A stretch of DNA of 64,000 nucleotides from Promethearchaeota archaeon (GTDB lineage Archaea > Asgardarchaeota > Heimdallarchaeia > Hodarchaeales > Hodarchaeaceae). The translations under genes were made by a program, and so were the position numbers. Under the pieces are notes generated by a model. That model had not been told where the DNA came from. It searched no databases and saw only the letters and a list, made by a program, of their open reading frames with translations. The stretch lies in assembly GCA_048938105.1 (NCBI GenBank), contig JBHLMN010000012.1, forward strand, positions 1 through 64,000, read 5' to 3'. This document shows, in pieces, positions 43,066 through 59,980 of the stretch (positions are counted from its first letter, which is position 1; each line of letters starts with the position of its first letter).

Positions 43066-46000
43066 TTAATTTAAATACTCAGATTTTTTAATGATTATAA
43101 TTTCTTCTTTCTTATAATCAATTTCAATAGTTAATTTATTTTTTATCTTTATTACACTATAAATTAAATCTAGAAATTCGAGAGTCTCTTCAATATACCA
43201 CTTTGGTTTTAATTGCTTATCTAATATTAAATTTGGTTGAAGTAGTTTTTCCAATCTTAAAATTGAGGTTTCATTTTCATATATTTGAATATCTTGTAAA
43301 TTAGATAAAATGTGTGAATTCCATGGACAGGGGATTTTTTCAGAAAAGACATAGAAATAAAACTGATCTAATCTCTCAACAAGTTCAAGTATATCTGATG
43401 TCCATGGGTTTAGATTTCTACCCATTAATATAACACGTTTTTCGATATTATCGCATAATTCCTCAATAATTTTTAGAAATTCAATTTTTTGTTCTGTTTT
43501 CACTGTATTGAGGAATTTAATAATTCTAAAATAGTCTCGCAAATCTAAATTTGCTAATATTTCTCTCTCATCAATATTTGGAATAGGAATATAACTTTCA
43601 AAGCTTTTTAGTCTTTTATTTAAATCTTGAGGTAATCCTCGTCTCCATTTATTATCTCCAAACAATATTCTTGTATAATTAAAAATAAAATTCTTTAATT
43701 TTTCTTCAAGAATGACTTTAATTTTGTTAATCGCTAAATCAAAATTATTACTTTCTACATTTCTCCTGATATCATTGAGAAGAATTTTATCCTCTCTCCA
43801 AATTCCCTTTCCCTTCAATGAAAACCAAATATCCCACTGTACAAACCTTTTTAATCTTGAAACCAAGTCCTTAATTGTTGACAAGTAATCTGAAATTAAT
43901 CTAGTTTTATCATCTAAAGAAGGACTTATTTTTAACATAAAAGATTTTAATAATTTTGCAAAATACGTGACTACTTCCAATTCATACCAAGAATTTTCAT
44001 GAAATTCTAATGCTTCTTCGTAATTCTGTACTTCGGAATCACATTGAATTACATAAGCCATTAAGAGCGAAGAAAATGATTCTTGAATTATTTCAACATT
44101 AAATTTCGCTAATGATGATTCTTTGGCAATTCGTAATGATTTGGAGAATTGATATACTTCTTTATACCCTCTGGCTGCACTGACTAATTTTTCAATAAAA
44201 GCACTTCCATATTCTTCTCCCCTCTTAATTGTATTCTCAAGGGCTAGTAATACTTCATCTTCATATTCTTCGGGTATTTCTTTAACAAAGTAAAGAGATG
44301 GAATAATATTGACAGGATTTACACTATAGATATGGTTTATTTTATTGAAATAGTCATTACAATTTTCATTTATAGTCCATGATGGTTCCTGATCCGTTTC
44401 TTTCTTTATTAACAGTCCAACGGAGAAAAGATGAATAATTAATTCTCTGTTCTTAAGAAAATCGTAACTTCCCTCAATAATCGGATCACTCAACCATATA
44501 TCTTCTAAAACTTTAATTAATCGTTCAAATGTATCACGATTTGATTCTGTTCTCGTTTTAAGTTCTTGAAAAGCCTTATGTAATTGGTTATGGCTTCTTT
44601 CAATATCTTTTCTTGCATTTCTTATTTCAACATCATCTTCTCTTATTGTTATTGAATCTTCTGTAAATTCCAATCGTTTAAATCTCTTGATAAGAATTTC
44701 AATATAATCACGAAAAGTCTTGATCGGACGACCAGGATGTTTTTCCATTTTGGACAATCTAACTAAGTAATCTCTTGTGATAGAAGGAGCATTCTCGACC
44801 TCAATTGAAAATACTTTGAGTCTATGATTTATCATTGCTAAAGCTTCATCAATAGTAACTGAAGACATTGGATGATAATCATCAACACTCCCAGATATTG
44901 ATCTATCTCCCTTTATTCTCTGCGAAAGCTCATCAATCGCAGAAAAAAAGAAAGAAGTAGAGATTTCATGAGAAAAATCTTTTCTATAAATTTGAAGAGA
45001 TGTTATAAATCCAATAATCTCTTCCATATACTCTCCAATACTTGAATGCTTGTAGATATCTTCAATGAAAATTATTAATGCCTTTTTAACCGTTGATAAG
45101 GTTTTAAGCATAATAAGGCAATCTTCTTCAGGATCTATTTCTTCTGGAGTATAATCAAATTCATTTTGATGTACTTTTTTCAAGTGTGAACGTAATTTTA
45201 CGAAAAATTTTCTCTTTATTTCAACTACTCGCTCTCTTGCGTCTAAAGAAAAGATTATCACAATTGTATCATTATAATGCAGATTGATTAATCGATTCAT
45301 ATATTGAAATAATGTTGTTTTTCCAGATCCAAAAGCACCGTAAACACACATTGTTATGTTCTTAATGGAGGAAAAATTCCTTAGAATCGCATGTTTGAAT
45401 TGGTTTATCGAATTTGTTGGATAGATTATTTCATCATAGTATTCAGGATTAATATTACTTAATCCATCTTTAGATGGAAAAGGATTTTCTTTCAAACCAA
45501 GCCGTTTATACCAATCTAAATATTCAATGTTATCCTCGACTTCTTCTGAGGGAAGAGGAGGAAGGAATTCAACAGGACGATCTTTATATCGTTCTATAAC
45601 TGAGGCACTTCTCTTTCTATATTTTTCGAGTTCTTTAGTCATTGTAGATAATTCTTTTTGTAATTCAATTAATTTAATATCCTTTCTACGTCTTGAAAGA
45701 TGATCCTGAATGCTCTCTTCTCGTGATTCAAAGTATCTTTCATTATAATAATCTAATATTCGATTATGATAATACTGAATTTGTTTTAAAAGAAAAATTT
45801 CTTTCAAAGCTTCATATAATTTTTCAAAATTGATAATTAAATCCTTTGAAATTAAATATTTCAGAAAATTTAAAGCAAAATCCTCAATATTAAGGCTAGA
45901 AACAGATTTCATTTGCTTTCTAATTGTTATCAATTCTTCTTTTGAGTTCGCTCTTGTAATCTTCTTTTGATTTCTATAAAAAAAGATTTCTAATTCTTTT

Positions 46001-47013
46001 GTGATTTCATAATCCTTTAGAGGATCAGAAATTTCTTCAGAAATTTCTTTCTCTCTATAAGGTAAGCTAAACCTTATGATACCATCTTTCCTTGCTTCTG
46101 GAGAAACTGAAGTATCACTTGGGCAAAAATTAAGGCCTCTTTCAGTATGAAAATAAGAATGAATCCCTCTAGCGGTATATGGATCATAATCAAGAATAGA
46201 GAATCTATACCTATATTTTTCTGGATTCCTCTTTTCAGGTAAATAAAGTGTCCCCATAATGAATGTTATATATTCTCTTTCTCTAGAAATTTCTTTTTTT
46301 ATATAAGAATCAGGATAATGCTCATGGCCAACAACTACTATATCAAAACTTTTCCCAATTTTCATTTCTAAGTTGCGACGATTGTTAGGATATAAGCAAT
46401 GAGGGGGATGGTGTTGTACTAAAATAGACAAATTAAAATCATTTTTATCTTTAAAGGTATCTTTGATACCGTCAATATGAATAAAGGATGGCAATTTATC
46501 TTGGGCTAAAGAATTTGCTAAACATGAATTGAGCGATGTGATATTTATCTTGAATTTACTAATATCTACGGTTTTAGTGTAACCAAAAATTGAGTGTTTT
46601 TCGCATAAAAATCGTTCTTGAAATCTGATATAATTACTGAAGGCGTTATCTACATGAACTTTAAAATCAGAGGAGGAGAAAATTTCTTCAAATTTCATAC
46701 TATTTGGTGTTTCTATATATTTAAAAGCTGTACCTAATGAATCACGGTTATAGTCATGATTTCCAGGTGTAAAGAAGAATCTAGAGCTATCAATATTAAG
46801 ACTGTGTCTTAATCTTTCAAAAAAGAGTAACGCCTTATCATATTGATCAACTTTCCCTTCTGATGTAATGTCTCCTGGTACAACGACTAAGTCAACTCTA
46901 TTTTCAGCTACAATCATTTGATCAAAATGGTTAATAATTTTATCGAAAATTCTGTCTTGTAGATTATCATTACTAACCATATGAAGATCTGAAAAGATAG
47001 CTATTGTAACCAA
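43066..47013 (-). CDS. Metallophosphoesterase - P-loop NTPase - helical/Swt1-HEPN-like multidomain defence protein
   Basis: FSDLH, VPGD, PGNHD, HHP and GHEH; LKENPF then YGAFGSGKTT and IFIEDI; KWRRGLP...LDLRDYFRII. Confidence 0.8.
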   Translation of the reverse strand: MVTIAIFSDLHMVSNDNLQDRIFDKIINHFDQMIVAENRVDLVVVPGDITSEGKVDQYDKALLFFERLRHSLNIDSSRFFFTPGNHDYNRDSLGTAFKYIETPNSMKFEEIFSSSDFKVHVDNAFSNYIRFQERFLCEKHSIFGYTKTVDISKFKINITSLNSCLANSLAQDKLPSFIHIDGIKDTFKDKNDFNLSILVQHHPPHCLYPNNRRNLEMKIGKSFDIVVVGHEHYPDSYIKKEISREREYITFIMGTLYLPEKRNPEKYRYRFSILDYDPYTARGIHSYFHTERGLNFCPSDTSVSPEARKDGIIRFSLPYREKEISEEISDPLKDYEITKELEIFFYRNQKKITRANSKEELITIRKQMKSVSSLNIEDFALNFLKYLISKDLIINFEKLYEALKEIFLLKQIQYYHNRILDYYNERYFESREESIQDHLSRRRKDIKLIELQKELSTMTKELEKYRKRSASVIERYKDRPVEFLPPLPSEEVEDNIEYLDWYKRLGLKENPFPSKDGLSNINPEYYDEIIYPTNSINQFKHAILRNFSSIKNITMCVYGAFGSGKTTLFQYMNRLINLHYNDTIVIIFSLDARERVVEIKRKFFVKLRSHLKKVHQNEFDYTPEEIDPEEDCLIMLKTLSTVKKALIIFIEDIYKHSSIGEYMEEIIGFITSLQIYRKDFSHEISTSFFFSAIDELSQRIKGDRSISGSVDDYHPMSSVTIDEALAMINHRLKVFSIEVENAPSITRDYLVRLSKMEKHPGRPIKTFRDYIEILIKRFKRLEFTEDSITIREDDVEIRNARKDIERSHNQLHKAFQELKTRTESNRDTFERLIKVLEDIWLSDPIIEGSYDFLKNRELIIHLFSVGLLIKKETDQEPSWTINENCNDYFNKINHIYSVNPVNIIPSLYFVKEIPEEYEDEVLLALENTIKRGEEYGSAFIEKLVSAARGYKEVYQFSKSLRIAKESSLAKFNVEIIQESFSSLLMAYVIQCDSEVQNYEEALEFHENSWYELEVVTYFAKLLKSFMLKISPSLDDKTRLISDYLSTIKDLVSRLKRFVQWDIWFSLKGKGIWREDKILLNDIRRNVESNNFDLAINKIKVILEEKLKNFIFNYTRILFGDNKWRRGLPQDLNKRLKSFESYIPIPNIDEREILANLDLRDYFRIIKFLNTVKTEQKIEFLKIIEELCDNIEKRVILMGRNLNPWTSDILELVERLDQFYFYVFSEKIPCPWNSHILSNLQDIQIYENETSILRLEKLLQPNLILDKQLKPKWYIEETLEFLDLIYSVIKIKNKLTIEIDYKKEEIIIIKKSEYLN

Positions 47014-49679: not shown

Positions 49680-50474
49680 TTATTCCTTAATTCTAATTAG
49701 TTCCTCTACTTCTGTTGTGAGAAATGTCAGTTGTGAAAGCATACTGATACACTGGTAAGGAGAGAGAAGTTTTGTACTATGTTGAGCTCGATTCCGTAGT
49801 TCCCGTAAGAAATGAAATCCATGAAAAAATGTCTGTAAGATTGTCTTCCGATCATCTGACATTGATAATTTTGCTTGAATCATATGGAGTACATTCATTA
49901 AGTCAGACCACCGATCATGTGTATTAATATAACTCCGAATATCTCCCATCCCTTTCGTACCTTTAAAGATAGTTGGAATAGTTTGTCTGATCACAGTAAA
50001 GAAGAAAAACTCTGACACTAATGCTAGTTTTGAAGCAGCTGTTGAATCATCGCTCTCTATTATTGCACGCAGTGCATAAAAATATTCGTCCTGATGTTCC
50101 TCATCCAGATATTGAAGGATATTAAACATTGTATTTCCATTAAATTGATTTGCTAGAATTACACAGGGATCGTTATTCCCAATGTAGCTTCTTGATTGAA
50201 CACCTCTCAACTTAATATAATGTTCCTCTCGTGTGAGTTGAAATACATTCGTTCCCAATGAAACATTACCAGAAGAAAACTTCAATATAACTGATTCAAT
50301 TTTCCCTTTTATATTATTTGTCACCAAATATTCATATTCTTTGTGCTTGACGTAGTTAAATCCTTCTTCAGGGTACATATGGTCAAGGAAAGATTCTAGT
50401 GTGTCAATAGCAGTGTTCAGAGGAAATATCAACACAATTTTATCTTCTAGCTGCACAAACATGGAATTTTCCAC
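49680..50474 (-). CDS. Hypothetical protein with C-terminal HEPN-like motif
   Basis: LRELRNRAQH (R-N-x3-H) in a helical C-terminus. Confidence 0.5.
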   Translation of the reverse strand: MENSMFVQLEDKIVLIFPLNTAIDTLESFLDHMYPEEGFNYVKHKEYEYLVTNNIKGKIESVILKFSSGNVSLGTNVFQLTREEHYIKLRGVQSRSYIGNNDPCVILANQFNGNTMFNILQYLDEEHQDEYFYALRAIIESDDSTAASKLALVSEFFFFTVIRQTIPTIFKGTKGMGDIRSYINTHDRWSDLMNVLHMIQAKLSMSDDRKTILQTFFHGFHFLRELRNRAQHSTKLLSPYQCISMLSQLTFLTTEVEELIRIKE

Positions 50475-50843: not shown

Positions 50844-51890
50844 TTAAGGATCTAGAGAATGAATTTTCCTTTCAGAGTCAACCAATCGTATTTTATGTTC
50901 TGAAACATCCTCCATCCTTCGACCCCGCCATGTCCAACTAAGATAATATTCACCTGATTGAGAGGTTAATCTAACAACAGCAGAATAAGCGAGTAAACTG
51001 AGGAGAAGAGACCGAATCCGTTCAAGATCAAGCTGCTTACTCACTTCTTTTTCAATCCTACTTTTATATCCAGGTTTTTTAATATGAATTGCTTCAATTC
51101 CTTCTTGAATCGCTGATTTGCATTGATCTTTATCATTAGTAATAAATAAAATAGGAAGACTCGTATTTTGACGAATGAAGTCAACTTCATAACGAATAAG
51201 GCTATCGTGAACAGCATTTAGAAAAGGACTTTGTTCAAGAACTTTAGGGGAGTGGAGGACATGACTTGGTTTTACAATAATAACTGGTGCCCACTTATGT
51301 AAAGCGTCAACTTCATAAGTACCTTTCAATCCAAGTCTTCCTCTTTCATTTGATAGACTGGTCATAAGATCAGGAGTATATTTACCAAATCTAGAATTCC
51401 AAAGGTCCGCTAAGAGTGGCCAAGTTTGAACTGCTTGTTCAAAGAAATTTTCCACATCGGATGGAAGGCGAGAGGAATAGGTAAAAGGTCTCATACTATG
51501 AATTTCATATTGAATTGAACGTGCAAACAAAACCAAAACTGGGACAATATCATGGGGGCTTACAGCTAATCTCTTAAGAAATTTTGTTAAGAATCCTGGA
51601 ATGATTAAGTTTGTATCAGGTGCAATCCCTTTTACTCGATGAGGAAGAGTTTCTCTCCTAACCCATTCTTCAAGCTCATTTTCAGATTCACTAAAAATCA
51701 AATCAGCTTCCCAGTAAAGATGAGCTAAATCATTCTTATTCCAATTGGGAGAAGAACAGATTTCTTTTCGGGTTTTATCATAACAGATTTGCAGATCAAC
51801 CCATTCCCAAGAGGATTCTTGAATGACATGGAATTTCCAACAGGGATTCTCCGAAAAACACTCATTGAGAAGATTAATAAGAAGCTTCAT
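50844..51890 (-). CDS. PIN-domain putative ribonuclease
   Basis: APDTNL, IQYEI, HDSLIRYE and LFITNDKDQ..A..EGI acidic tetrad. Confidence 0.65.
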   Translation of the reverse strand: MKLLINLLNECFSENPCWKFHVIQESSWEWVDLQICYDKTRKEICSSPNWNKNDLAHLYWEADLIFSESENELEEWVRRETLPHRVKGIAPDTNLIIPGFLTKFLKRLAVSPHDIVPVLVLFARSIQYEIHSMRPFTYSSRLPSDVENFFEQAVQTWPLLADLWNSRFGKYTPDLMTSLSNERGRLGLKGTYEVDALHKWAPVIIVKPSHVLHSPKVLEQSPFLNAVHDSLIRYEVDFIRQNTSLPILFITNDKDQCKSAIQEGIEAIHIKKPGYKSRIEKEVSKQLDLERIRSLLLSLLAYSAVVRLTSQSGEYYLSWTWRGRRMEDVSEHKIRLVDSERKIHSLDP

Positions 51891-52471
51891 TTACGAACCA
51901 TCCGAACATTGTCATCTAATTGTTCAAGTGAGGTAAAAATCGTTTCATAAGCATCGAAACCGAGTTCATAAAGCATTTTATTCAAATTATCAGGAGTAAA
52001 ACGTTTAAGCCAGTAATAGGCAATGTCATAAGAACAATTAGGTCTATTTTGCTTCAGGATAATAATACTTAACAAAGCTGAACCAGTCATAATCTTACGT
52101 CCTGCAGTTATGTCAAAAATTACACGATCGCCATCTTGAATAATCTTGTTTGCAGCTGAAACAATTAAAGGAACATTTGCACCAAGATCATGTTCGTAAA
52201 TATCTATCAACTCGTGATCTTGTGAGTGAATCCTAATATTTATTATTGATTGAAGTTTGTCAAGATTTCGAGTATTAGCTTGGAATCGTTCGATTACTTG
52301 ATTAATATCACTTGAAGTACGATCGGGAAACGGTTGGTCTTCTGAAGATCCTATGAAAAAATAACAATCAACTCTTATCCCCTCATCTAGTGTTAAAAGA
52401 TGAGATGCCATGGCATTAGCAACTGCTTGAGGAGTAGTACCAACAGTAAAAAACATTTTGATTGAACCCAT
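51887..52471 (-). CDS. Stand-alone CARF domain protein
   Basis: FFTVGTTPQAV and IFDITAGRKIMT (CARF motifs I and II). Confidence 0.8.
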   Translation of the reverse strand: MGSIKMFFTVGTTPQAVANAMASHLLTLDEGIRVDCYFFIGSSEDQPFPDRTSSDINQVIERFQANTRNLDKLQSIINIRIHSQDHELIDIYEHDLGANVPLIVSAANKIIQDGDRVIFDITAGRKIMTGSALLSIIILKQNRPNCSYDIAYYWLKRFTPDNLNKMLYELGFDAYETIFTSLEQLDDNVRMVRK

Positions 52472-52515
52472 TAAGGAACACCTTTATTTAATTGCTTAAA
52501 ACTATTAATCAATTC

Positions 52516-53193
52516 TTAAGGTAACGAAATAACAGTATCAACTTTTTTTTCAGGTAAATAGAATCGTCTTAACCCATATTCCTTTGCTAGAATGTATAAG
52601 GACAGCGTGTGGATTTTAGTTAAACCAGTAATGTCGGTAATAATGGAATAGTTTAAGATAATGTCATCAATGACTTGTTTCATTGTTTGGTAGGTCGGTT
52701 CAAACTCAAGTAAGGGAACCTCAATTAATTGAGCTTCTGAATGTATCCTTTGCAGATTTAACCAGTTGTCATCATTCTCCAAAATTTCAATAATTTCAGT
52801 TGTTGTAAAAATGAAAAGTGCTTTAAATGCCCATCCGTGAGACTTTAATCTCTCAATAGACTGATTTAACTGTAATCCTGAATTTTTCTTGCCAACCATA
52901 CCTAAATATGCATATTTTTGTGTATTTTCGAAATATCGTCTTGCTCGTTCGATAAAACGCGGTGAGATACGAAGATAAATGGCTTTAGTTCCAGGTTGTT
53001 TTTCTTTAACTACGATATTACTTTCTAGTAGTATATTAAGATGATGGCGGGCGTTAGTTTCAGATATTTTTAGATAATCAATATATAATGATTTGAAATC
53101 AGTTAAACCTTGATTAAGTAACGTTTCAACAAATTTCTTTCGTGTTGCTTCTTTTAGTGATTCCACGAAAATGGTATAAGGTGGATCATCCAT
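52516..53193 (-). CDS. wHTH-CARF transcriptional regulator (Csa3-like, reversed domain order)
   Basis: ArsR-like HTH (ISETNARHHLNILLESNIV); CARF motifs YLGMVG and ITDITGLTKIHT. Confidence 0.78.
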   Translation of the reverse strand: MDDPPYTIFVESLKEATRKKFVETLLNQGLTDFKSLYIDYLKISETNARHHLNILLESNIVVKEKQPGTKAIYLRISPRFIERARRYFENTQKYAYLGMVGKKNSGLQLNQSIERLKSHGWAFKALFIFTTTEIIEILENDDNWLNLQRIHSEAQLIEVPLLEFEPTYQTMKQVIDDIILNYSIITDITGLTKIHTLSLYILAKEYGLRRFYLPEKKVDTVISLP

Positions 53194-53233
53194 TTTCCTT
53201 CACTAGAATATGATATCATTTTTCCCTTTATAA

Positions 53234-53299
53234 TATATTCGCTATATACACTAGCGAATATAATAATATTTATATACGCTATATACAATAGAGTATATG
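53234..53299. promoter_or_regulatory. Tandem palindromic operator in the divergent promoter
   Basis: Perfect TATATTCGCTA-N7-TAGCGAATATA (53234-53262) and a second copy TATATACGCTA-N7-TAGAGTATATG (53271-53299), period 37 bp. Confidence 0.75.
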
Positions 53300-53318
53300 G
53301 AGAAAGGGATTAAGAAAT

Positions 53319-54248
53319 ATGATTGGAAATAAGGCAAATAGAATTTTCATTGAAAATAAGCATTGTAATGAGCCTTTACATAACATAGAAAGAGGGGATG
53401 TCTCACAAAAACTCATAAGTGTGAATTATCATCTGACAAACGCCTGTAATTATCAATGTAGATTCTGTTTTGCGCGATTTCCTCAATCACATAAAATCTT
53501 GCCATTAAAGAAAGCAAAAAAGCTAGTAACACAGCTCTCAATGCATGGAACTAAAAAAATAACGTTTGTAGGGGGAGAGCCCCTTCTTTATCCACAGTTA
53601 GGGGAATTAATCCGTTATACGAAAAACTACAATATTACTACAATGATAATAACCAATGGATCACTTTTAGATTGTGTATATTTAGAATTATATGAAAAGT
53701 ATATAGATTGGATCGGCTTTAGCCTCGATTCAAGTATTGATGTGGTTAATGATACACTTGGGCGTCGCCTAAAAAATAGTCGAAAACAGAATTTAACCCA
53801 TATTCAACGTGTTCGTTCTTTGGTACCCACCGTAAAAAATTTGGGAATTAATGTAAAAATAAATACTGTAGTAACATCGTTGAACTGGCAGGAAGATATG
53901 AACTGGTTAATCAAGGAATTAAAACCAGATCGATGGAAAGTATTCCAGGTTCTAAAAATCGATGGAGAGAATGATAGGGATATCAGCCCTTTACTGATCA
54001 CACCAAGACAATTTCAACATTTTATCTTTCGTCATCAAAATTGTAACCCAAATAAAGAATCCAATGACGCAATGATGGGCAGCTACATCATGATAGATCC
54101 ATTAGGCAGATTTTTTGATAATACAAATGGGTACCTTACTTTTAGTCGTCCGATTCTTGAGGTTGGAGTAGAAAAAGCATTTAGTGACATACAGTTCTCA
54201 TTAAAAAAATTTTATCAACGAGGTGGGCATTATAATTGGGACACTTGA
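53319..54248 (+). CDS. Viperin (RSAD2-like radical SAM antiviral enzyme)
   Basis: SVNYHLTNACNYQCRFCF, KITFVGGEP, KINTV, RWKVFQVL, SYIMIDPLGRFFDN and FYQRGGHYNW. Confidence 0.93.
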   Translation: MIGNKANRIFIENKHCNEPLHNIERGDVSQKLISVNYHLTNACNYQCRFCFARFPQSHKILPLKKAKKLVTQLSMHGTKKITFVGGEPLLYPQLGELIRYTKNYNITTMIITNGSLLDCVYLELYEKYIDWIGFSLDSSIDVVNDTLGRRLKNSRKQNLTHIQRVRSLVPTVKNLGINVKINTVVTSLNWQEDMNWLIKELKPDRWKVFQVLKIDGENDRDISPLLITPRQFQHFIFRHQNCNPNKESNDAMMGSYIMIDPLGRFFDNTNGYLTFSRPILEVGVEKAFSDIQFSLKKFYQRGGHYNWDT

Positions 54249-54278: not shown

Positions 54279-54413
54279 ATGATAAAAAAATCAGGAAAAA
54301 AAATTATGGCGAAAGAAGCAGCTACTAGAATATAGTCTCATACAGATCGTACAGGACGGACTCAGCAGTTCAAAGCCCAAGTTCAAAGAGCTGTGAGTAA
54401 AAAACGGAAATAA
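54279..54413 (+). pseudogene. Small basic protein (EAAxRIQS-type, SMP-like) with internal stop
   Basis: MIKKSGKKIMAKEAATRI*SHTDRTGRTQQFKAQVQRAVSKKRK; TAG where CAG is expected. Confidence 0.4.
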
Positions 54414-54432
54414 GACGAATTTTCGTCTTATT
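54409..54432 (+). terminator. Inverted repeat, possible terminator or processing hairpin
   Basis: aataagacgaa-tt-ttcgtcttatt. Confidence 0.45.
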
Positions 54433-54564: not shown

Positions 54565-57357
54565 TTGAGAGAAGTCTTGTCTTATCTTTACTATGAGAAC
54601 TTTTCTGATGTGATGACTAAAGATCAAGCAAGAGCTATAATGTGGGGGATTTACGATAATTTAAAACCATATTTCGGATTTATTGAATCAATAATGAGAG
54701 TTGCAAGTAGAAAGGTGTTATCAGTTGAGGTAGAACCTTTCCCATTAGAAGATCTCATCTCTGAAGAACTATTTGAGATAATTGATGAATCAAAGATTAC
54801 CAAAAAAGAGGAAATATTGAGTCTTTTAAATCAAGAAGAGATAAGGAAAAAATTTGATCGTCAATTAAAATGGATCATTAAACTTGTACAAGAAGAAAAA
54901 GGAGCCCTATACAGAATTATTGATGATCCTGATGATGAGAAGATTGATAGAACAAAAGATGAATTTTTGGCCGCTGAAGAAGTTTATTTAACGAGTAAAG
55001 TAAGGGATGCGAGACGAATTGAGGTATTAACAAGCTATTCCCCTTATGATATTATTGTATTCAAAAAAAAGTGGTTACCAGAAAAAGAAGGAAAATTCAA
55101 GATCTATCTTAGATCTAATCTATACCAATTACAAATGATCTTGGATTCTTTACGGATCCTACAAAATAGACCAATGGATTACAATCGAAATTTAGTTAGA
55201 TTGATGGAAAATATTAATCATGTCCAATTTGACGATTTAGAGAATTTTAAAATAGCTGATAAAGAATGGATGTTCCTTAGCGATCCCAATCGTGAGGGTA
55301 CGAAAGTTCAAAGAGAATTTGTGGAAATTAGCTTAGCCACTCCAGATTTTGCATTATTAGAAGGACCTCCAGGCTCAGGAAAGACAACAACAATCTGTGA
55401 AATAATTTGTCAAGCAATAAAAAGGGGACAAAGAGTTCTATTGGTTGCCTCGACACATGTAGCCGTTGACAACGTCTTAGAAAAACTAATGGATGAAAAT
55501 TCTCATTATTTTAGTGAAATAAAACGAACCGTATTACCGATTCGAATAGGAAGATCAGAACGGATATCTGATTTAGCAACAAAATATCATGCAGAGACAT
55601 TTTGGGAGTCTGAACGAAAAAGATTACGCAGAAGATTGGAACAATTTAAGGAAAGAACAGAGTCTCAAGAAGAAATGTTAAAACTTCTGAGATCATCGGA
55701 AAAACTGATTAATATTCATATGAAAAATGTATTTATTCGTGCAGCAAACTTAGTTTGTGGAACAACCATTGGCATTTTGCGCCATCCTGAAATTTACAGG
55801 ATCAGACGAGGAGGAACAACTCTTTTACCTTATGATCTTTTGATTTTAGATGAAGCGAGTAAAACAACATTTCAAGAATTTCTTGTTCCATCATTAGTAG
55901 CAGGTCGATTTATAATTGTTGGGGATATACGTCAATTATCCCCATTTGTTGATGAGGAGGGAGTTGTATCTAATTTACAAGAAATTTCAGTTTCGGAAGC
56001 TTATTGGGTAACATTAATTAACAATATTAGAAATTCTGAAAAAGTTAACAAAGGAAATAAATACATTGTTCAATTAAAAGAAAATTTAACTGAAAAAGAA
56101 GTGAAAATCATCAAAGAGCTAATACCAAATGATATACCTTGGATATTGCTTTCAGAAGAAAAAAAAGTGGATTCTTTACAATTATTAGGATCTACAATTA
56201 TCATTGGGACACTTAATTCTTTAATTCTACATGAAAAAATGTTACCTCTCAATGTAAATTGGATGAATGATCAAGAAAATTCCATACTCAGTCCATTAAA
56301 TAAAAAATCAGTTCTTCAATCTTTGGACACTTGGCAAAGGAGTTTAAAAGCCTGTAAACAAATGAAACCACCTATAAGCGAAAAGTATGCAAATGATGAG
56401 CAATTTGAAGAAGCAATTGGATGGCGACTAATCCGTGATTATGAGCTTAGATTAATAAAGGATAATCGATATAGAGAGGAAATTGAAAACCTCATCCCAC
56501 AAAATTGGTCTAATGAAGAAAAGAATAATTTTCGATCAATCTTAAACGGTCTGAAACGATTAGCTTTTCCATCAATTATTGAATTGTTACAGAAAGGTTT
56601 TGAACGAAGTTATATACAGAAAGAAAGAGATCTAGGTTCCTGTCTGACAGATGGAATTCCTAGAGTTTTTTTAAATAAAAGACATAGAATTTTGCAGTAT
56701 CAACATAGGATGCATCCAGAGATTTCTGAATTTCCAAGAAAACAGTTTTACAATGATGAAGCCCTTAAAGATATTCCTGGATTAGAGCATGAGCGAGAAT
56801 TAAATTTCAAGAATTATCAACATGCCATATTATGGATTGATGTACCAAGAAAAAAACTAAAACCGAGTATGGTGAAGATTAAAAGTAGGAGGCAATTTAA
56901 AAATAGTAATGAAGATGAAGCTAATGTAATAATATCTGAGCTTAAAGATTTATTAAATCCAAGAAAACTCATTCCAAGACAAGATGGAAGACCTTGGGAG
57001 ATAGCAATACTTCCATTTTATAAAGGCCAGGAACGGTTAATCAGGTTCAAACTTCAAAGATTATTTAGTTCAAACCGAAAACGAACATTTTTCAACAAAA
57101 ATCGAACAGTACGGGTTGAATTATGTGTTGTAGATCGATTCCAAGGGCATGAAGCTGATATTGTTTTTTTATCTTTAGTACGTAATAGCGGGGTGGGATT
57201 TCTAGATACACCTAATCGATTAAATGTCGCACTCACACGACCGCGTTACCAACGTATTATTGTTGGAAATCGTTTACATTTCATTCGACAAGGCCGATCT
57301 GAGTTATTACGAAATTTAGCTGAAGAAACTCCTTATAAGAGATATTATCGGGGTTAA
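54565..57357 (+). CDS. Superfamily 1 helicase (Upf1/DNA2-like, AAA_11/AAA_12)
   Basis: EGPPGSGKTT, STHVAVDN, ILDEAS, VGDIRQL, QHRMHP, VDRFQGHE and NRLNVALTR. Confidence 0.93.
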   Translation: MREVLSYLYYENFSDVMTKDQARAIMWGIYDNLKPYFGFIESIMRVASRKVLSVEVEPFPLEDLISEELFEIIDESKITKKEEILSLLNQEEIRKKFDRQLKWIIKLVQEEKGALYRIIDDPDDEKIDRTKDEFLAAEEVYLTSKVRDARRIEVLTSYSPYDIIVFKKKWLPEKEGKFKIYLRSNLYQLQMILDSLRILQNRPMDYNRNLVRLMENINHVQFDDLENFKIADKEWMFLSDPNREGTKVQREFVEISLATPDFALLEGPPGSGKTTTICEIICQAIKRGQRVLLVASTHVAVDNVLEKLMDENSHYFSEIKRTVLPIRIGRSERISDLATKYHAETFWESERKRLRRRLEQFKERTESQEEMLKLLRSSEKLINIHMKNVFIRAANLVCGTTIGILRHPEIYRIRRGGTTLLPYDLLILDEASKTTFQEFLVPSLVAGRFIIVGDIRQLSPFVDEEGVVSNLQEISVSEAYWVTLINNIRNSEKVNKGNKYIVQLKENLTEKEVKIIKELIPNDIPWILLSEEKKVDSLQLLGSTIIIGTLNSLILHEKMLPLNVNWMNDQENSILSPLNKKSVLQSLDTWQRSLKACKQMKPPISEKYANDEQFEEAIGWRLIRDYELRLIKDNRYREEIENLIPQNWSNEEKNNFRSILNGLKRLAFPSIIELLQKGFERSYIQKERDLGSCLTDGIPRVFLNKRHRILQYQHRMHPEISEFPRKQFYNDEALKDIPGLEHERELNFKNYQHAILWIDVPRKKLKPSMVKIKSRRQFKNSNEDEANVIISELKDLLNPRKLIPRQDGRPWEIAILPFYKGQERLIRFKLQRLFSSNRKRTFFNKNRTVRVELCVVDRFQGHEADIVFLSLVRNSGVGFLDTPNRLNVALTRPRYQRIIVGNRLHFIRQGRSELLRNLAEETPYKRYYRG

Positions 57358-57359
57358 AA

Positions 57360-58454
57360 ATGAAGATAACATTAAAAAGAAGGGTGGAGGTATTATCTTA
57401 TGCAGTTCAGATGACAATATTCGAAGAGGAGGATAGACCAGAAATCATTCCACTTCTAAGGACTTTATCAGAAGCCAATGAAACCAACATAAATGTAATC
57501 GAATATCTGCAGAATAATATTTTCATAGACCTTCCTGTTGCTTTTATAAAGAACATTCTTATTGAATTAAGATTGATGGGGTTAATTTTAGAGGATAATA
57601 CTCTTTCAAACAGAGGTAAACAAACATTAGAGAAAGGAGAGGTGATGGTACCTCGTACAGGGCCTTATAGAGTCGATATAGTTGACGATCCTCTAATCAA
57701 ACAAGTTATTATAGATTATAATCCTTTGAATCTAAGTCTAAAAGACGATTTATTTTCACAAGACGATGACTCGAGACAAACAATAGAAATTCCCGATTTT
57801 TTGAGTAATACGATAGATACTCGCGTAAGTACTATTGAAAACAACTCGCGAACAATAGATATCAAGGAAATCCAAGAAAGAGGTTCAAAATTACATAGCA
57901 AACATCAACTAGAAATTACTCTTCAATTTTTGAATAGCTATACTCAGCTTATAGTAAATTATAGAAATCATACAAGAACACTTGAACTCCCTTCAAATTT
58001 TAATGAAAATAAACTCATTGATCGTTTATTAACCTCAATATCATCAGAAGCAGATCTAACTAGATGGCGAATCGAGCAATCTCCAGAATCATTAACTATT
58101 ACAGAACTAAGTCGGTTCAAAAAAAATTTCAATCTGCCCTCATTTGAAATTGAAGAATTGGGTTATTTTTCCTTTGTCACATTACAAGACATTGAGATCT
58201 ACCCTGATAACGATCAAAGTGCACGACAATGGGCAATTGATCTATTTCTTGAAGAGTTATCAGATTATGTGATTAATAAGAGATATCTTGATTTATGGAA
58301 TGATCTAATCTACAAATATCCAGTATTGGGGGAGTATGAGTATGTAATTCCAACGCTTAAAGAACTTTGGTCTGGTGTACAATTTGGATCTCAGAAATAT
58401 TGGTTCTTACGAGCAGGAACAGATATGAGACTTGGGGAGGTAATTCAAGAATGA
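57360..58454 (+). CDS. Hypothetical protein in the helicase-PLD operon (N-terminal wHTH-like)
   Basis: Tightly coupled to both neighbours; ELRLMGLI...LSNRG. Confidence 0.7.
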   Translation: MKITLKRRVEVLSYAVQMTIFEEEDRPEIIPLLRTLSEANETNINVIEYLQNNIFIDLPVAFIKNILIELRLMGLILEDNTLSNRGKQTLEKGEVMVPRTGPYRVDIVDDPLIKQVIIDYNPLNLSLKDDLFSQDDDSRQTIEIPDFLSNTIDTRVSTIENNSRTIDIKEIQERGSKLHSKHQLEITLQFLNSYTQLIVNYRNHTRTLELPSNFNENKLIDRLLTSISSEADLTRWRIEQSPESLTITELSRFKKNFNLPSFEIEELGYFSFVTLQDIEIYPDNDQSARQWAIDLFLEELSDYVINKRYLDLWNDLIYKYPVLGEYEYVIPTLKELWSGVQFGSQKYWFLRAGTDMRLGEVIQE

Positions 58455-59980
58455 TTGAAAGGTATGAAAAAGATTTTTCAAAACAGTTAAACACAAATAT
58501 CCCACCACATTGGCGAGTTAGGGAAACTGAATCATATAAAAGACAACCCACCACAAAGCGAATCGTAGCAATAGGGGGAGGAGATAACCGTTTTCGGTCA
58601 TTACTGATTAATGCAATTAAAGAAGCTCAGCATACTATCATGCTTTGTTCATTTATATTGAGCGATGAACAGATAATTGAGGAGATCTTAGGAGCTGCTG
58701 ATCGCGAAGTCCGATGCTATTTGATGTTTTCTACTGAAACACAGTTAAAAAAGGAGTACCGCGAAGACATGACAGAGTTTGATCAAAAGACACTTGATGC
58801 TCATAAAAAAATGCTTGACCAACTAGTAGGAAAAGCATTAGCTCGTACAAATGAACATTTACATGCTAAATTTTTACTGATTGATTATAGTTTTCCCTCA
58901 CAAAAAGGGTTCATAAGTACTGCTAATTTTACATATGAAGCATTAACACGAAATCAAGAAATTGGGATTATTCTTACAGAAAAAGAAATCAATGAAGTTT
59001 TTGAATTTTTTAGATTTGGATTTTGGTCCGAAAGTAATCAAGAATTATTACGGATTAGGAGTTGGGATGATGTTAAGAGAGAACATATCAATGTAAACAA
59101 TAATTATTTAAGGATCAGGACAACAACTGTTCAAAATCAGGGAATTAAAAATGAAATTTTTAATTGTATCAAAAACGCACGTGGTTCGCTGATTGTTGCA
59201 AGCTATGGATTCGATGTTGACCATGAAGTAGCAGAAGCTTTGTATCAAAAAGCACAAACAAACGAACTCACTATAATAACACGTCCTAGGGACAGAAACA
59301 TGCCATTTATCGAAAAACTCTCAAATTCAGGAGCAACCATATTCAGTTTCAACTTCTTACATGCAAAATTCATTTATGCTCCGAAAGAAAAATATGGATT
59401 TATCATGACAGCAAATATCGAACCTCGTGGATTAGATACTGGTTATGAAGTTGGAATATTGCTAAATGAGGAGGATTACTCTGAACTTAATGTGATCATC
59501 AATGAATGGCTCAAACATGCTCCTTTGAAGTGGGAAAAAGGTGGAAATGTGCAAATCCTATCTCCAGGAAAAATATTGATACCAAATGGAAAGGAATCCG
59601 AAGAAAAAGAAATCATTCTTGAGTATTCTCTGCCAATTGAAGAAGAGTCTCCACCAGACCTTTTCAAAATGAAGAAACTAATGGAATCTCCCCCTAGAAT
59701 CCCTGAAAAAGTACCAGGATTATTACCCAAAGTAATAAAAGTAAAAAAGATTATTAATCCTCCAATTTTACCTAAAAATGCTGTGAAGATTGATGCAAAT
59801 GAATATTGGAGAAATACATCAAGTAAAGCAGAGTTGAAAAAGAAAAAGATTAAGAAATTTCCTATAACAGTTTATAAACTAAAAAATAATTATTATGGGA
59901 TCATTAAATCGTGGAAGGAATTTGAGAAGGTGAATAATCATCCCGATCTACCAAAAAATATTATATTCATTTCGGAATAA
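58451..59980 (+). CDS. Phospholipase D-family nuclease (two HxK motifs)
   Basis: HLHAKFLLID...STANFT and LHAKFI...TANIE; ATGA overlap and GGAGG RBS favour start 58451. Confidence 0.88.
   Translation: MIERYEKDFSKQLNTNIPPHWRVRETESYKRQPTTKRIVAIGGGDNRFRSLLINAIKEAQHTIMLCSFILSDEQIIEEILGAADREVRCYLMFSTETQLKKEYREDMTEFDQKTLDAHKKMLDQLVGKALARTNEHLHAKFLLIDYSFPSQKGFISTANFTYEALTRNQEIGIILTEKEINEVFEFFRFGFWSESNQELLRIRSWDDVKREHINVNNNYLRIRTTTVQNQGIKNEIFNCIKNARGSLIVASYGFDVDHEVAEALYQKAQTNELTIITRPRDRNMPFIEKLSNSGATIFSFNFLHAKFIYAPKEKYGFIMTANIEPRGLDTGYEVGILLNEEDYSELNVIINEWLKHAPLKWEKGGNVQILSPGKILIPNGKESEEKEIILEYSLPIEEESPPDLFKMKKLMESPPRIPEKVPGLLPKVIKVKKIINPPILPKNAVKIDANEYWRNTSSKAELKKKKIKKFPITVYKLKNNYYGIIKSWKEFEKVNNHPDLPKNIIFISE

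Follow-up and report, generated by a model that had tools for sequence, protein, structure and literature searches.

A CARF-domain transcription factor facing viperin in a Hodarchaeales genome: candidate sensing and regulatory arm of a mobile defence cassette in Asgard archaea

Few antiviral effectors are common to archaea, bacteria and animals; viperin is among them, and a hallmark of the animal enzyme is its induction via a nucleotide-triggered signalling pathway. Could an archaeal viperin likewise be under the control of a nucleotide sensor? The question is raised by a locus at 50.8-60.0 kb of a 64,000-nucleotide stretch (the window) that comprises positions 1-64,000 of contig JBHLMN010000012.1 from a Promethearchaeota archaeon (Hodarchaeales, Hodarchaeaceae; assembly GCA_048938105.1, 5.85 Mb, completeness 99%, contamination 7%). 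The locus has two divergent arms with eight genes in total. The minus arm encodes a winged helix-turn-helix (wHTH)-CARF protein of 225 amino acids (aa), a 194-aa CARF protein and a 348-aa PIN protein, and the plus arm, across a gap of 125 bp, encodes viperin, a micro-open reading frame (micro-ORF), a UPF1/MkoA-like helicase, a 364-aa protein and a PLD nuclease. We lean towards the view that the minus arm and the shared promoter serve for sensing and control in a mobile Asgard defence cassette, with a regulator, operators and a CARF-PIN effector in the roles proposed below; the cassette is present once in this genome.

The regulator, viperin and their shared promoter

The regulator gene (52516-53193, minus strand) encodes a 225-aa transcription factor of the CARF_m5 architecture, as assigned by PADLOC, HTH_5 and Card1-CARF matches. 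The PADLOC CARF_m5 profile (PDLC01987) was matched at 6.2e-19, with residues 18-216 aligned to positions 10-189 of the 195 in the profile, and the two domains were placed at residues 39-61 (ArsR-type HTH, HTH_5) and 123-218 (Card1-CARF). The CARF signature D187-x-T189-x3-K193 is invariant, and in the Atlas model of this exact protein residues ~90-225 align to the CARF domains of the Csa3, HFX_2341, Card1, Csm6 and RtcR families. The protein is a CARF transcription factor with its domain order reversed relative to Csa3. An earlier reading of the locus, made from the sequence alone, had described a minus-strand wHTH-CARF, CARF and PIN operon divergent from viperin and had set the regulator beside Csa3-type HTH-CARF proteins; all four genes are where it placed them, across 125 bp, and the CARF folds that it assigned to the regulator and to the stand-alone CARF protein are upheld by profile matches, by the structural look-alikes of the regulator and by the Crn1/Sso2081 relative of the stand-alone protein, whereas a Csa3-type assignment falls, since the HTH is N-terminal and the CARF domain C-terminal.

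Csa3a and Csa3b of Sulfolobales are CARF-wHTH transcription factors that bind cyclic tetra-adenylate (cA4) (PMC8844856, PMC8699464). The window regulator resembles them in being a small dimeric-type protein that couples a CARF domain with a winged helix, in being divergent from its putative target defence genes and in its palindromic candidate operators, and Csa3-type proteins hold the same viperin-adjoining position in other Asgard loci. It differs from them in the order HTH then CARF, in a putative target that is viperin rather than cas genes, and in belonging to a genome with no CRISPR-Cas. CARF_m5 relatives are widespread among Asgard genomes.

On the opposite strand, the viperin gene (53319-54248, plus strand) encodes a 309-aa radical S-adenosylmethionine enzyme of the prokaryotic viperin (pVip) type. 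Residues 33-302 scored 299.5 bits against the NCBIfam model NF038283 (viperin_w_prok; cut-off 180), the PADLOC pVip model was matched at 2.4e-88, and the CxxxCxxC motif (C43/C47/C50) is unchanged across 10 Asgard viperins. By these family profiles and its cysteine motif the protein is a true prokaryotic viperin, for which the synthesis of 3′-deoxy-3′,4′-didehydro nucleotides and antiviral activity are predicted. The score above the family cut-off and the cysteine motif are its likeness to described pVips; it differs in its setting, as pVips have been described as stand-alone or kinase-linked and the window viperin lies inside an apparently sensor-controlled multi-gene cassette. A second, truncated viperin copy is present in the same genome (G000:C52:362196-362612) as a 138-aa frame that corresponds to the C-terminal part of viperin (E 2e-42 to a cassette-derived profile). 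Elsewhere, an Asgard viperin lies inside a 559-aa frame (L048:2248-3927, genome G045) and is possibly a fusion; no CARF regulator was found adjoining it.

The intergenic region between the two genes (53194-53318, 125 bp) contains two putative operators. Site 2, nearer the regulator gene (53237-53259), is an 8-7-8 palindrome without mismatches and can be extended to 11-7-11, and site 1, nearer viperin (53274-53296), has one mismatch to the pattern and is spaced 37 bp from site 2. The end of a TTTATATA box (53269-53276) falls within site 1, as does the point where viperin transcription is expected to begin, and next to site 2 is a TATA-like element that would serve the operon of the regulator itself; both promoter assignments are what we infer from the bases of this region. 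As an independent test, the site pair was found to be kept in six of six orthologous intergenic regions at a spacing of 37-40 bp, with the surrounding intergenic DNA diverged. The more distant CARF_m5-viperin loci contain a different repeated motif, of TTAACGGC-type, as expected for diverged regulators. With its place between TATA box and start of viperin, site 1 suggests that the ligand-free regulator most likely represses and that ligand relieves this repression and so induces, though the regulator could also be an activator. At one orthologous locus only, an operator-like site with one mismatch was seen at the junction of the CARF and PIN genes (L007:1586-1608).

Conservation of the link to viperin

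The block in which the PIN, CARF and wHTH-CARF genes face viperin, micro-ORF, helicase, 364-aa protein and PLD is kept in orthologous contigs (PIN identity 52-67%), which come from other samples and from a Hermodarchaeota assembly. The flanks of these contigs vary, being NYN, an AAA_16 protein or a metallophosphatase. A direct-repeat search for the borders of the cassette yielded chance-level pairs only.

The link was then followed among 399 Asgard species genomes, in which a true viperin was found in 26, at 28 places, and the surroundings of each were scored with profiles built from the window cassette. Five of these places end at a contig edge, leaving 23 loci with enough upstream DNA to be judged. 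A gene combining HTH and CARF domains adjoins viperin in 14 of the 23, and in 12 of those 14 it is divergent. The regulators are of two opposite domain orders: CARF_m5 proteins (HTH-CARF) in the window clade and in L049, L056 and L066, and Csa3-type proteins (CARF-HTH; PADLOC CARF3, 1e-24 to 1e-55) in L045-47, L050, L054, L057, L061, L062 and others. On a midpoint-rooted viperin tree, whose related genomes are no independent samples, viperins linked to CARF_m5 regulators are found in three or more separate places among the Csa3-linked ones, and the window clade forms one well-supported group (99/97). The interleaving of two opposite regulator orders on this tree, evidence of an exchange of regulator types, argues that the link has been selected rather than being a chance adjacency, and the repeated presence of different regulators in the same position argues for function rather than inheritance alone. 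The adjacency of regulator and viperin is far beyond chance.

At least six loci (L045-47, L049, L056 and L066) have a regulator and viperin without the CARF-PIN pair, so that viperin is the constant partner. Where viperin cassettes do have the pair, it follows the CARF_m5 regulator in the window, a Csa3-type regulator in L061 and L062, and the PLD gene in L057. Among the best 80 viperin loci of all species genomes, mostly bacterial, CARF regulators were seen only in the Heimdall ones, a weak negative in that the profiles are Asgard-derived and may miss distant CARF domains. Proteins of ~1040 aa matching the PADLOC viperin-associated TPR model were also seen, one adjoining viperin (L056:4494-7604, minus strand) and one directly following a CARF_m5 regulator (L149:1793-4933, minus strand).

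The split CARF-PIN pair and the downstream genes

The 194-aa stand-alone CARF protein (51887-52471, minus strand) gave 18 CARF matches in PADLOC, Pfam and NCBIfam, each weak and all mutually consistent. It carries a D-I-T-x-G-R-K motif, and its invariant residues are G11, N19, E93 and T122-x-G-R-K. By sequence, its best solved relative is the ring nuclease Crn1/Sso2081, through a partial profile match (E 0.0065, residues 71-133). The gene overlaps that of the PIN protein by 4 nucleotides, with the PIN start over the CARF stop.

The 348-aa protein (50844-51890, minus strand) is a PIN nuclease with extra N- and C-terminal domains, its activity being predicted from an acidic quartet and an AlphaFold2 (AF2) model. 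Alone, it matched nothing in family-profile searches, and among 1.8 billion proteins just 26 representative relatives were detectable, all of 389 aa or less and none of the fused CARF-PIN form. The quartet D92, E129, D229 and D253 is invariant across 25 relatives, and Pfam PIN_4 was matched by 5 of 25 family members. A first fold from 11 close sequences was poor, with a predicted local distance difference test (pLDDT) score of 59 and a PIN core below 50, and the AF2 model from a 25-sequence alignment reached 92.5. The results showed that residues 1-341 of this model superpose on residues 156-400 of SiRe_0806 from Sulfolobus islandicus (Z 13.2, root-mean-square deviation 3.6, 228 aligned) at a sequence identity of 15%. 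The model also matched the PIN domain 3i8o (Z 12.7) and the PIN domains of Rrp44, SMG6, Nmd4 and VapC (Z 7-9.5); searches with the PIN-family profile against PDB sequences matched nothing. SiRe_0806 was crystallised with cA4 (PDB 9jxx, 9jxw), and our literature search found no publications on it or on a Sulfolobus CARF-PIN protein. It is CARF-fused, and its part after the N-terminal region is what superposes on the 348-aa protein; it differs in being a single fused chain, where in the window CARF and PIN are two separate proteins.

A model of the complex between the two window proteins scored 0.67 versus 0.00 for the best control, a mark that 58 out of 80 solved complexes attain, against 2 out of 110 mismatched pairs. 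Three model runs had at least 95% of contacts in common, with a partner pLDDT of 86, and to the modelled interface the CARF protein contributes its conserved ELGFD segment (158-174) and the PIN protein its first helix. This outcome supports binding of the one protein to the other. In front of the genes of two PIN relatives, at 42% and 26% identity, there is likewise a CARF homologue (hhalign 7e-53 and 6e-29), and of these two CARF-PIN pairs (L010, L011) one lies beside Csx1 and the other near cas1/cas2. Another PIN relative stands alone, adjoining uvrABC. CARF-PIN RNases are a recognised class of cyclic oligoadenylate (cOA) effectors. Those of type III CRISPR systems are one polypeptide and are encoded with or near Cas10, whereas here two overlapping genes are found in a genome with no match to Csm1, Cmr2, Cas10, Csm3 or Cas1.

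Behind viperin lies the micro-ORF (54279-54413, plus strand; 44 codons), in which an in-frame TAG stands where the intact orthologues of L001 and L002 (44-45 aa, 66% identical to each other) have Gln in a conserved R-I-Q-S-H-A-D-R; it is followed by a perfect hairpin at about 54407-54432. The next three genes, all on the plus strand and in conserved order, encode the superfamily 1 helicase (54565-57357; PADLOC MkoA 3e-86, Pfam AAA_11/AAA_12), the 364-aa protein, here termed the adaptor (57360-58454), and the PLD-family nuclease, DrmC/MkoB-like (58367-59980; PLDc_2 5e-27, DrmC 2e-23). The adaptor belongs to no named family: family-profile searches matched nothing, and an Atlas structure search returned only hypothetical bacterial proteins and nothing nucleotidyltransferase-like. 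PLD orthologues are of 510-511 aa, and the true start of the window gene is probably near 58450. Mokosh type I pairs an MkoA helicase with an MkoB PLD protein (bioRxiv 10.1101/2022.05.11.491447); the window helicase matches MkoA strongly and the PLD protein matches MkoB weakly, and the window differs in having the adaptor between the two genes and in the coupling of the trio to viperin and CARF sensors. One further contig (L153, G138:C144, 1-5600), on which there is no viperin, has a CARF_m5 regulator, a 236-aa protein, an MkoA-like helicase, a 391-aa protein and a PLD protein in one operon.

Two other genes lie near the cassette in the window. Upstream of it, a 1315-aa protein (43066-47013, minus strand) carries a calcineurin-like phosphoesterase domain (1e-17) at its N-terminus, the long remainder being without assignment. 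A 264-aa protein (49680-50474, minus strand), 369 bp behind the PIN gene, has an R-N-R-A-Q-H motif (HEPN Rx4H) and a weak match to the HEPN end of the CARF_HEPN profile (E 0.003). It was ruled out as part of the conserved block, as it is missing from all orthologous loci.

Ligand, signal source and competing explanations

What the sensors might bind is indicated by the neighbours of related regulators. A CARF_m5 relative is divergent from a Cas10 gene (L157, PADLOC Cas10 9e-67), coordinate comparison placed CARF_m5 homologues 0.5-12 kb from Cas10-like genes in nine genomes, and in L156 a relative heads a neighbourhood of CARF, PIN, Csx1 and Csa3. A cyclase of the type found in CBASS (anti-phage signalling systems based on cyclic oligonucleotides) directly follows a CARF_m5 regulator, co-transcribed with it, at L049:7355-8140 (minus strand, 2.7e-23) and at L150:4151-4981 (minus strand, 5.5e-27); the L049 pair faces viperin, and the L150 genome had no viperin match in the Asgard survey. 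Given that these relatives lie beside Cas10 or CD-NTase genes, the ligand of the CARF sensors is likely a cyclic oligonucleotide as made by one of these enzymes. Some proteins of ~630-670 aa in several other Asgard genomes (for example G053:C71, G015:C1:504613 and G311:C1:866238) match only the palm/cyclase part of the Csm1 model (positions ~490-730) and might be Cas10-like cyclases that stand alone; the genome of the window has none of them.

In the mechanism that we propose, wHTH-CARF dimers would bind the two palindromes of the shared promoter and so control viperin and their own operon, and probably the helicase, adaptor and PLD genes too. The CARF domain of the regulator would bind a cyclic oligonucleotide of the Cas10 or CD-NTase kind, and the genes would be induced as the bound ligand lifts the probable repression. 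The small CARF protein would use its C-terminal ELGFD segment to dock with the PIN protein and so form a two-chain CARF-PIN RNase, switched on by the same ligand, and may also degrade that ligand. Such an arrangement would resemble type III CRISPR, CBASS and cGAS-STING in its order of sensor, nucleotide signal, receptor and antiviral output, a likeness to type III CRISPR and CBASS that is strengthened by the L049 relative co-transcribed with a CD-NTase beside viperin. It would differ from the CRISPR and CBASS systems in that the output is transcription of a non-suicidal antiviral enzyme and in that no synthase is detectable in the genome. The parallel with animal cGAS-STING and interferon induction of viperin is one of logic only and not of shared pathway ancestry.

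Overall, the sequence-only reading is supported in part. The PIN fold that it named is upheld by the D-E-D-D quartet and the structural matches, the complex that it envisaged between CARF and PIN by the modelled score, and the linkage to viperin by orthologous contigs with different flanks and by the 14 of 23 Asgard loci; its nucleotide second messenger is made likely by the regulator relatives beside Cas10 or co-transcribed with CD-NTases, and a double operator can now be added. That the messenger induces viperin and the downstream effectors is, as in that reading, a proposal. It had also remarked that no cas or CD-NTase gene is present in the window, and this absence extends genome-wide for Cas10, Csm3, Cas1 and CD-NTase queries.

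That absence is one of several findings that weigh against the proposed mechanism. Nine queries of the 99%-complete genome gave no match to Csm1, Cmr2, Cas10, Csm3 or Cas1 and none to an intact CD-NTase, which leaves the proposed ligand without a known source in this genome. For CD-NTases the queries were SMODS, two PADLOC cyclase models and two Asgard cyclase proteins, and the genome differs from a CBASS-bearing one in that neither it nor the window locus yielded more than a SMODS/CD-NTase-like fragment (G000:C8:15567-15776, L009; E 2e-4). This fragment, on another contig and broken up by stops (TGA and TAG), may be what is left of a lost synthase. The palindrome pattern has two matches in the 64-kb window versus 0.35 expected, both intergenic, but it was drawn from these same sequences and the count is not independent; genome-wide the pattern is not enriched (2 strict matches versus 1.9 expected), and no wider regulon was found. 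By the cassette-derived profiles, nine of the 23 Asgard viperin loci have no CARF regulator. The pass of the complex model, for which the analysis's own alignments were the input, may partly reflect resemblance to the solved fused protein. Lastly, the gap of 316 bp between viperin and the helicase holds the micro-ORF, the hairpin and a TATA-like stretch, and gap and hairpin make co-transcription of the trio with viperin uncertain; viperin abuts or overlaps the helicase gene in L054, L055, L057 and L061, and on gene arrangement co-regulation of the three genes with viperin in the window is plausible.

A broader proposal would make the locus an inducible, interferon-like programme of Asgard archaea, in which infection gives rise to a nucleotide signal that acts through the CARF factor on viperin and the UPF1-like helicase and PLD protein, and in which the signal in a host without CRISPR would come from an unrecognised synthase or from the cassette itself. 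We put this forward tentatively, as possible rather than probable. Also unlikely, if only slightly more so, is that the trio consists of orphaned CRISPR accessories, derived from a type III locus and receiving no signal in a CRISPR-less host, so that the regulator would repress or activate constitutively and independently of ligand, while the CARF-PIN pair would stay silent until a signal-making enzyme was acquired. The Csx1-, Csa3- and Cas3-bearing neighbourhood of L156, in which the same trio occurs, agrees with such an origin, as do the CARF-PIN pairs beside Csx1 or cas1/cas2, the failure to find a signal synthase in the genome of the window and the lack of a Csm1 match in several other cassette-bearing genomes. 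The three genes are nevertheless intact, with CARF motifs and PIN catalytic residues invariant at 42-67% identity, which argues for continued selection and against decay, and the whole cassette clade keeps its sensors with no synthase on its contigs.

The sensors might instead respond to something other than a cOA: RNA ends with 2′,3′-cyclic phosphate, products of the helicase and PLD protein, or a by-product of viperin, any of which would make the cassette a self-contained feedback circuit. RtcR is a CARF precedent for sensing RNA ends with a 2′,3′-cyclic phosphate, and RtcR-type CARF domains are among the Atlas look-alikes of the regulator; the cassette clade is self-contained in five loci, and no cyclase was found in the genome. 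Against this stand the close members of the regulator family that are linked to Cas10 and CD-NTases and the cA4 in the crystals of the effector's nearest solved structure, and we regard a non-cOA ligand as quite improbable. That viperin is an independent single-gene system and the regulator controls only the CARF-PIN operon, the two being mere neighbours in a defence island, we consider very improbable: defence genes are known to cluster, many more defence-like genes are present in the window and pVips reportedly act as single genes, but regulator and viperin occur together without CARF-PIN in six or more loci, regulators of two unrelated domain orders are found in one and the same divergent position, several Asgard families share the link, and putative site 1 lies on the viperin core promoter.

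Full-text literature searches, including viperin with archaea, found no paper describing a link between viperin and CARF or Csa3 proteins, and in the literature searched we found nothing on the regulation of prokaryotic viperins. A 2026 survey of archaeal defence discusses viperins and does not mention CARF, and the mention of radical SAM in a paper on the CARF protein MM_0565 proved unrelated. Within the literature searched, the arrangement is thus undescribed, as the sequence-only reading had supposed, and it is assembled from known parts.

If the proposal is true, a CARF factor on a viperin promoter would be a directly testable case, in those archaea that are most closely related to eukaryotes, of a defence that a signal induces and that is non-suicidal, and CARF signalling would extend beyond CRISPR loci; the keeping of these sensors in a genome without Cas10 and CD-NTase matches sharpens the question of what they sense. 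The split CARF-PIN pair would be convenient for studying how a CARF domain controls a nuclease in trans.

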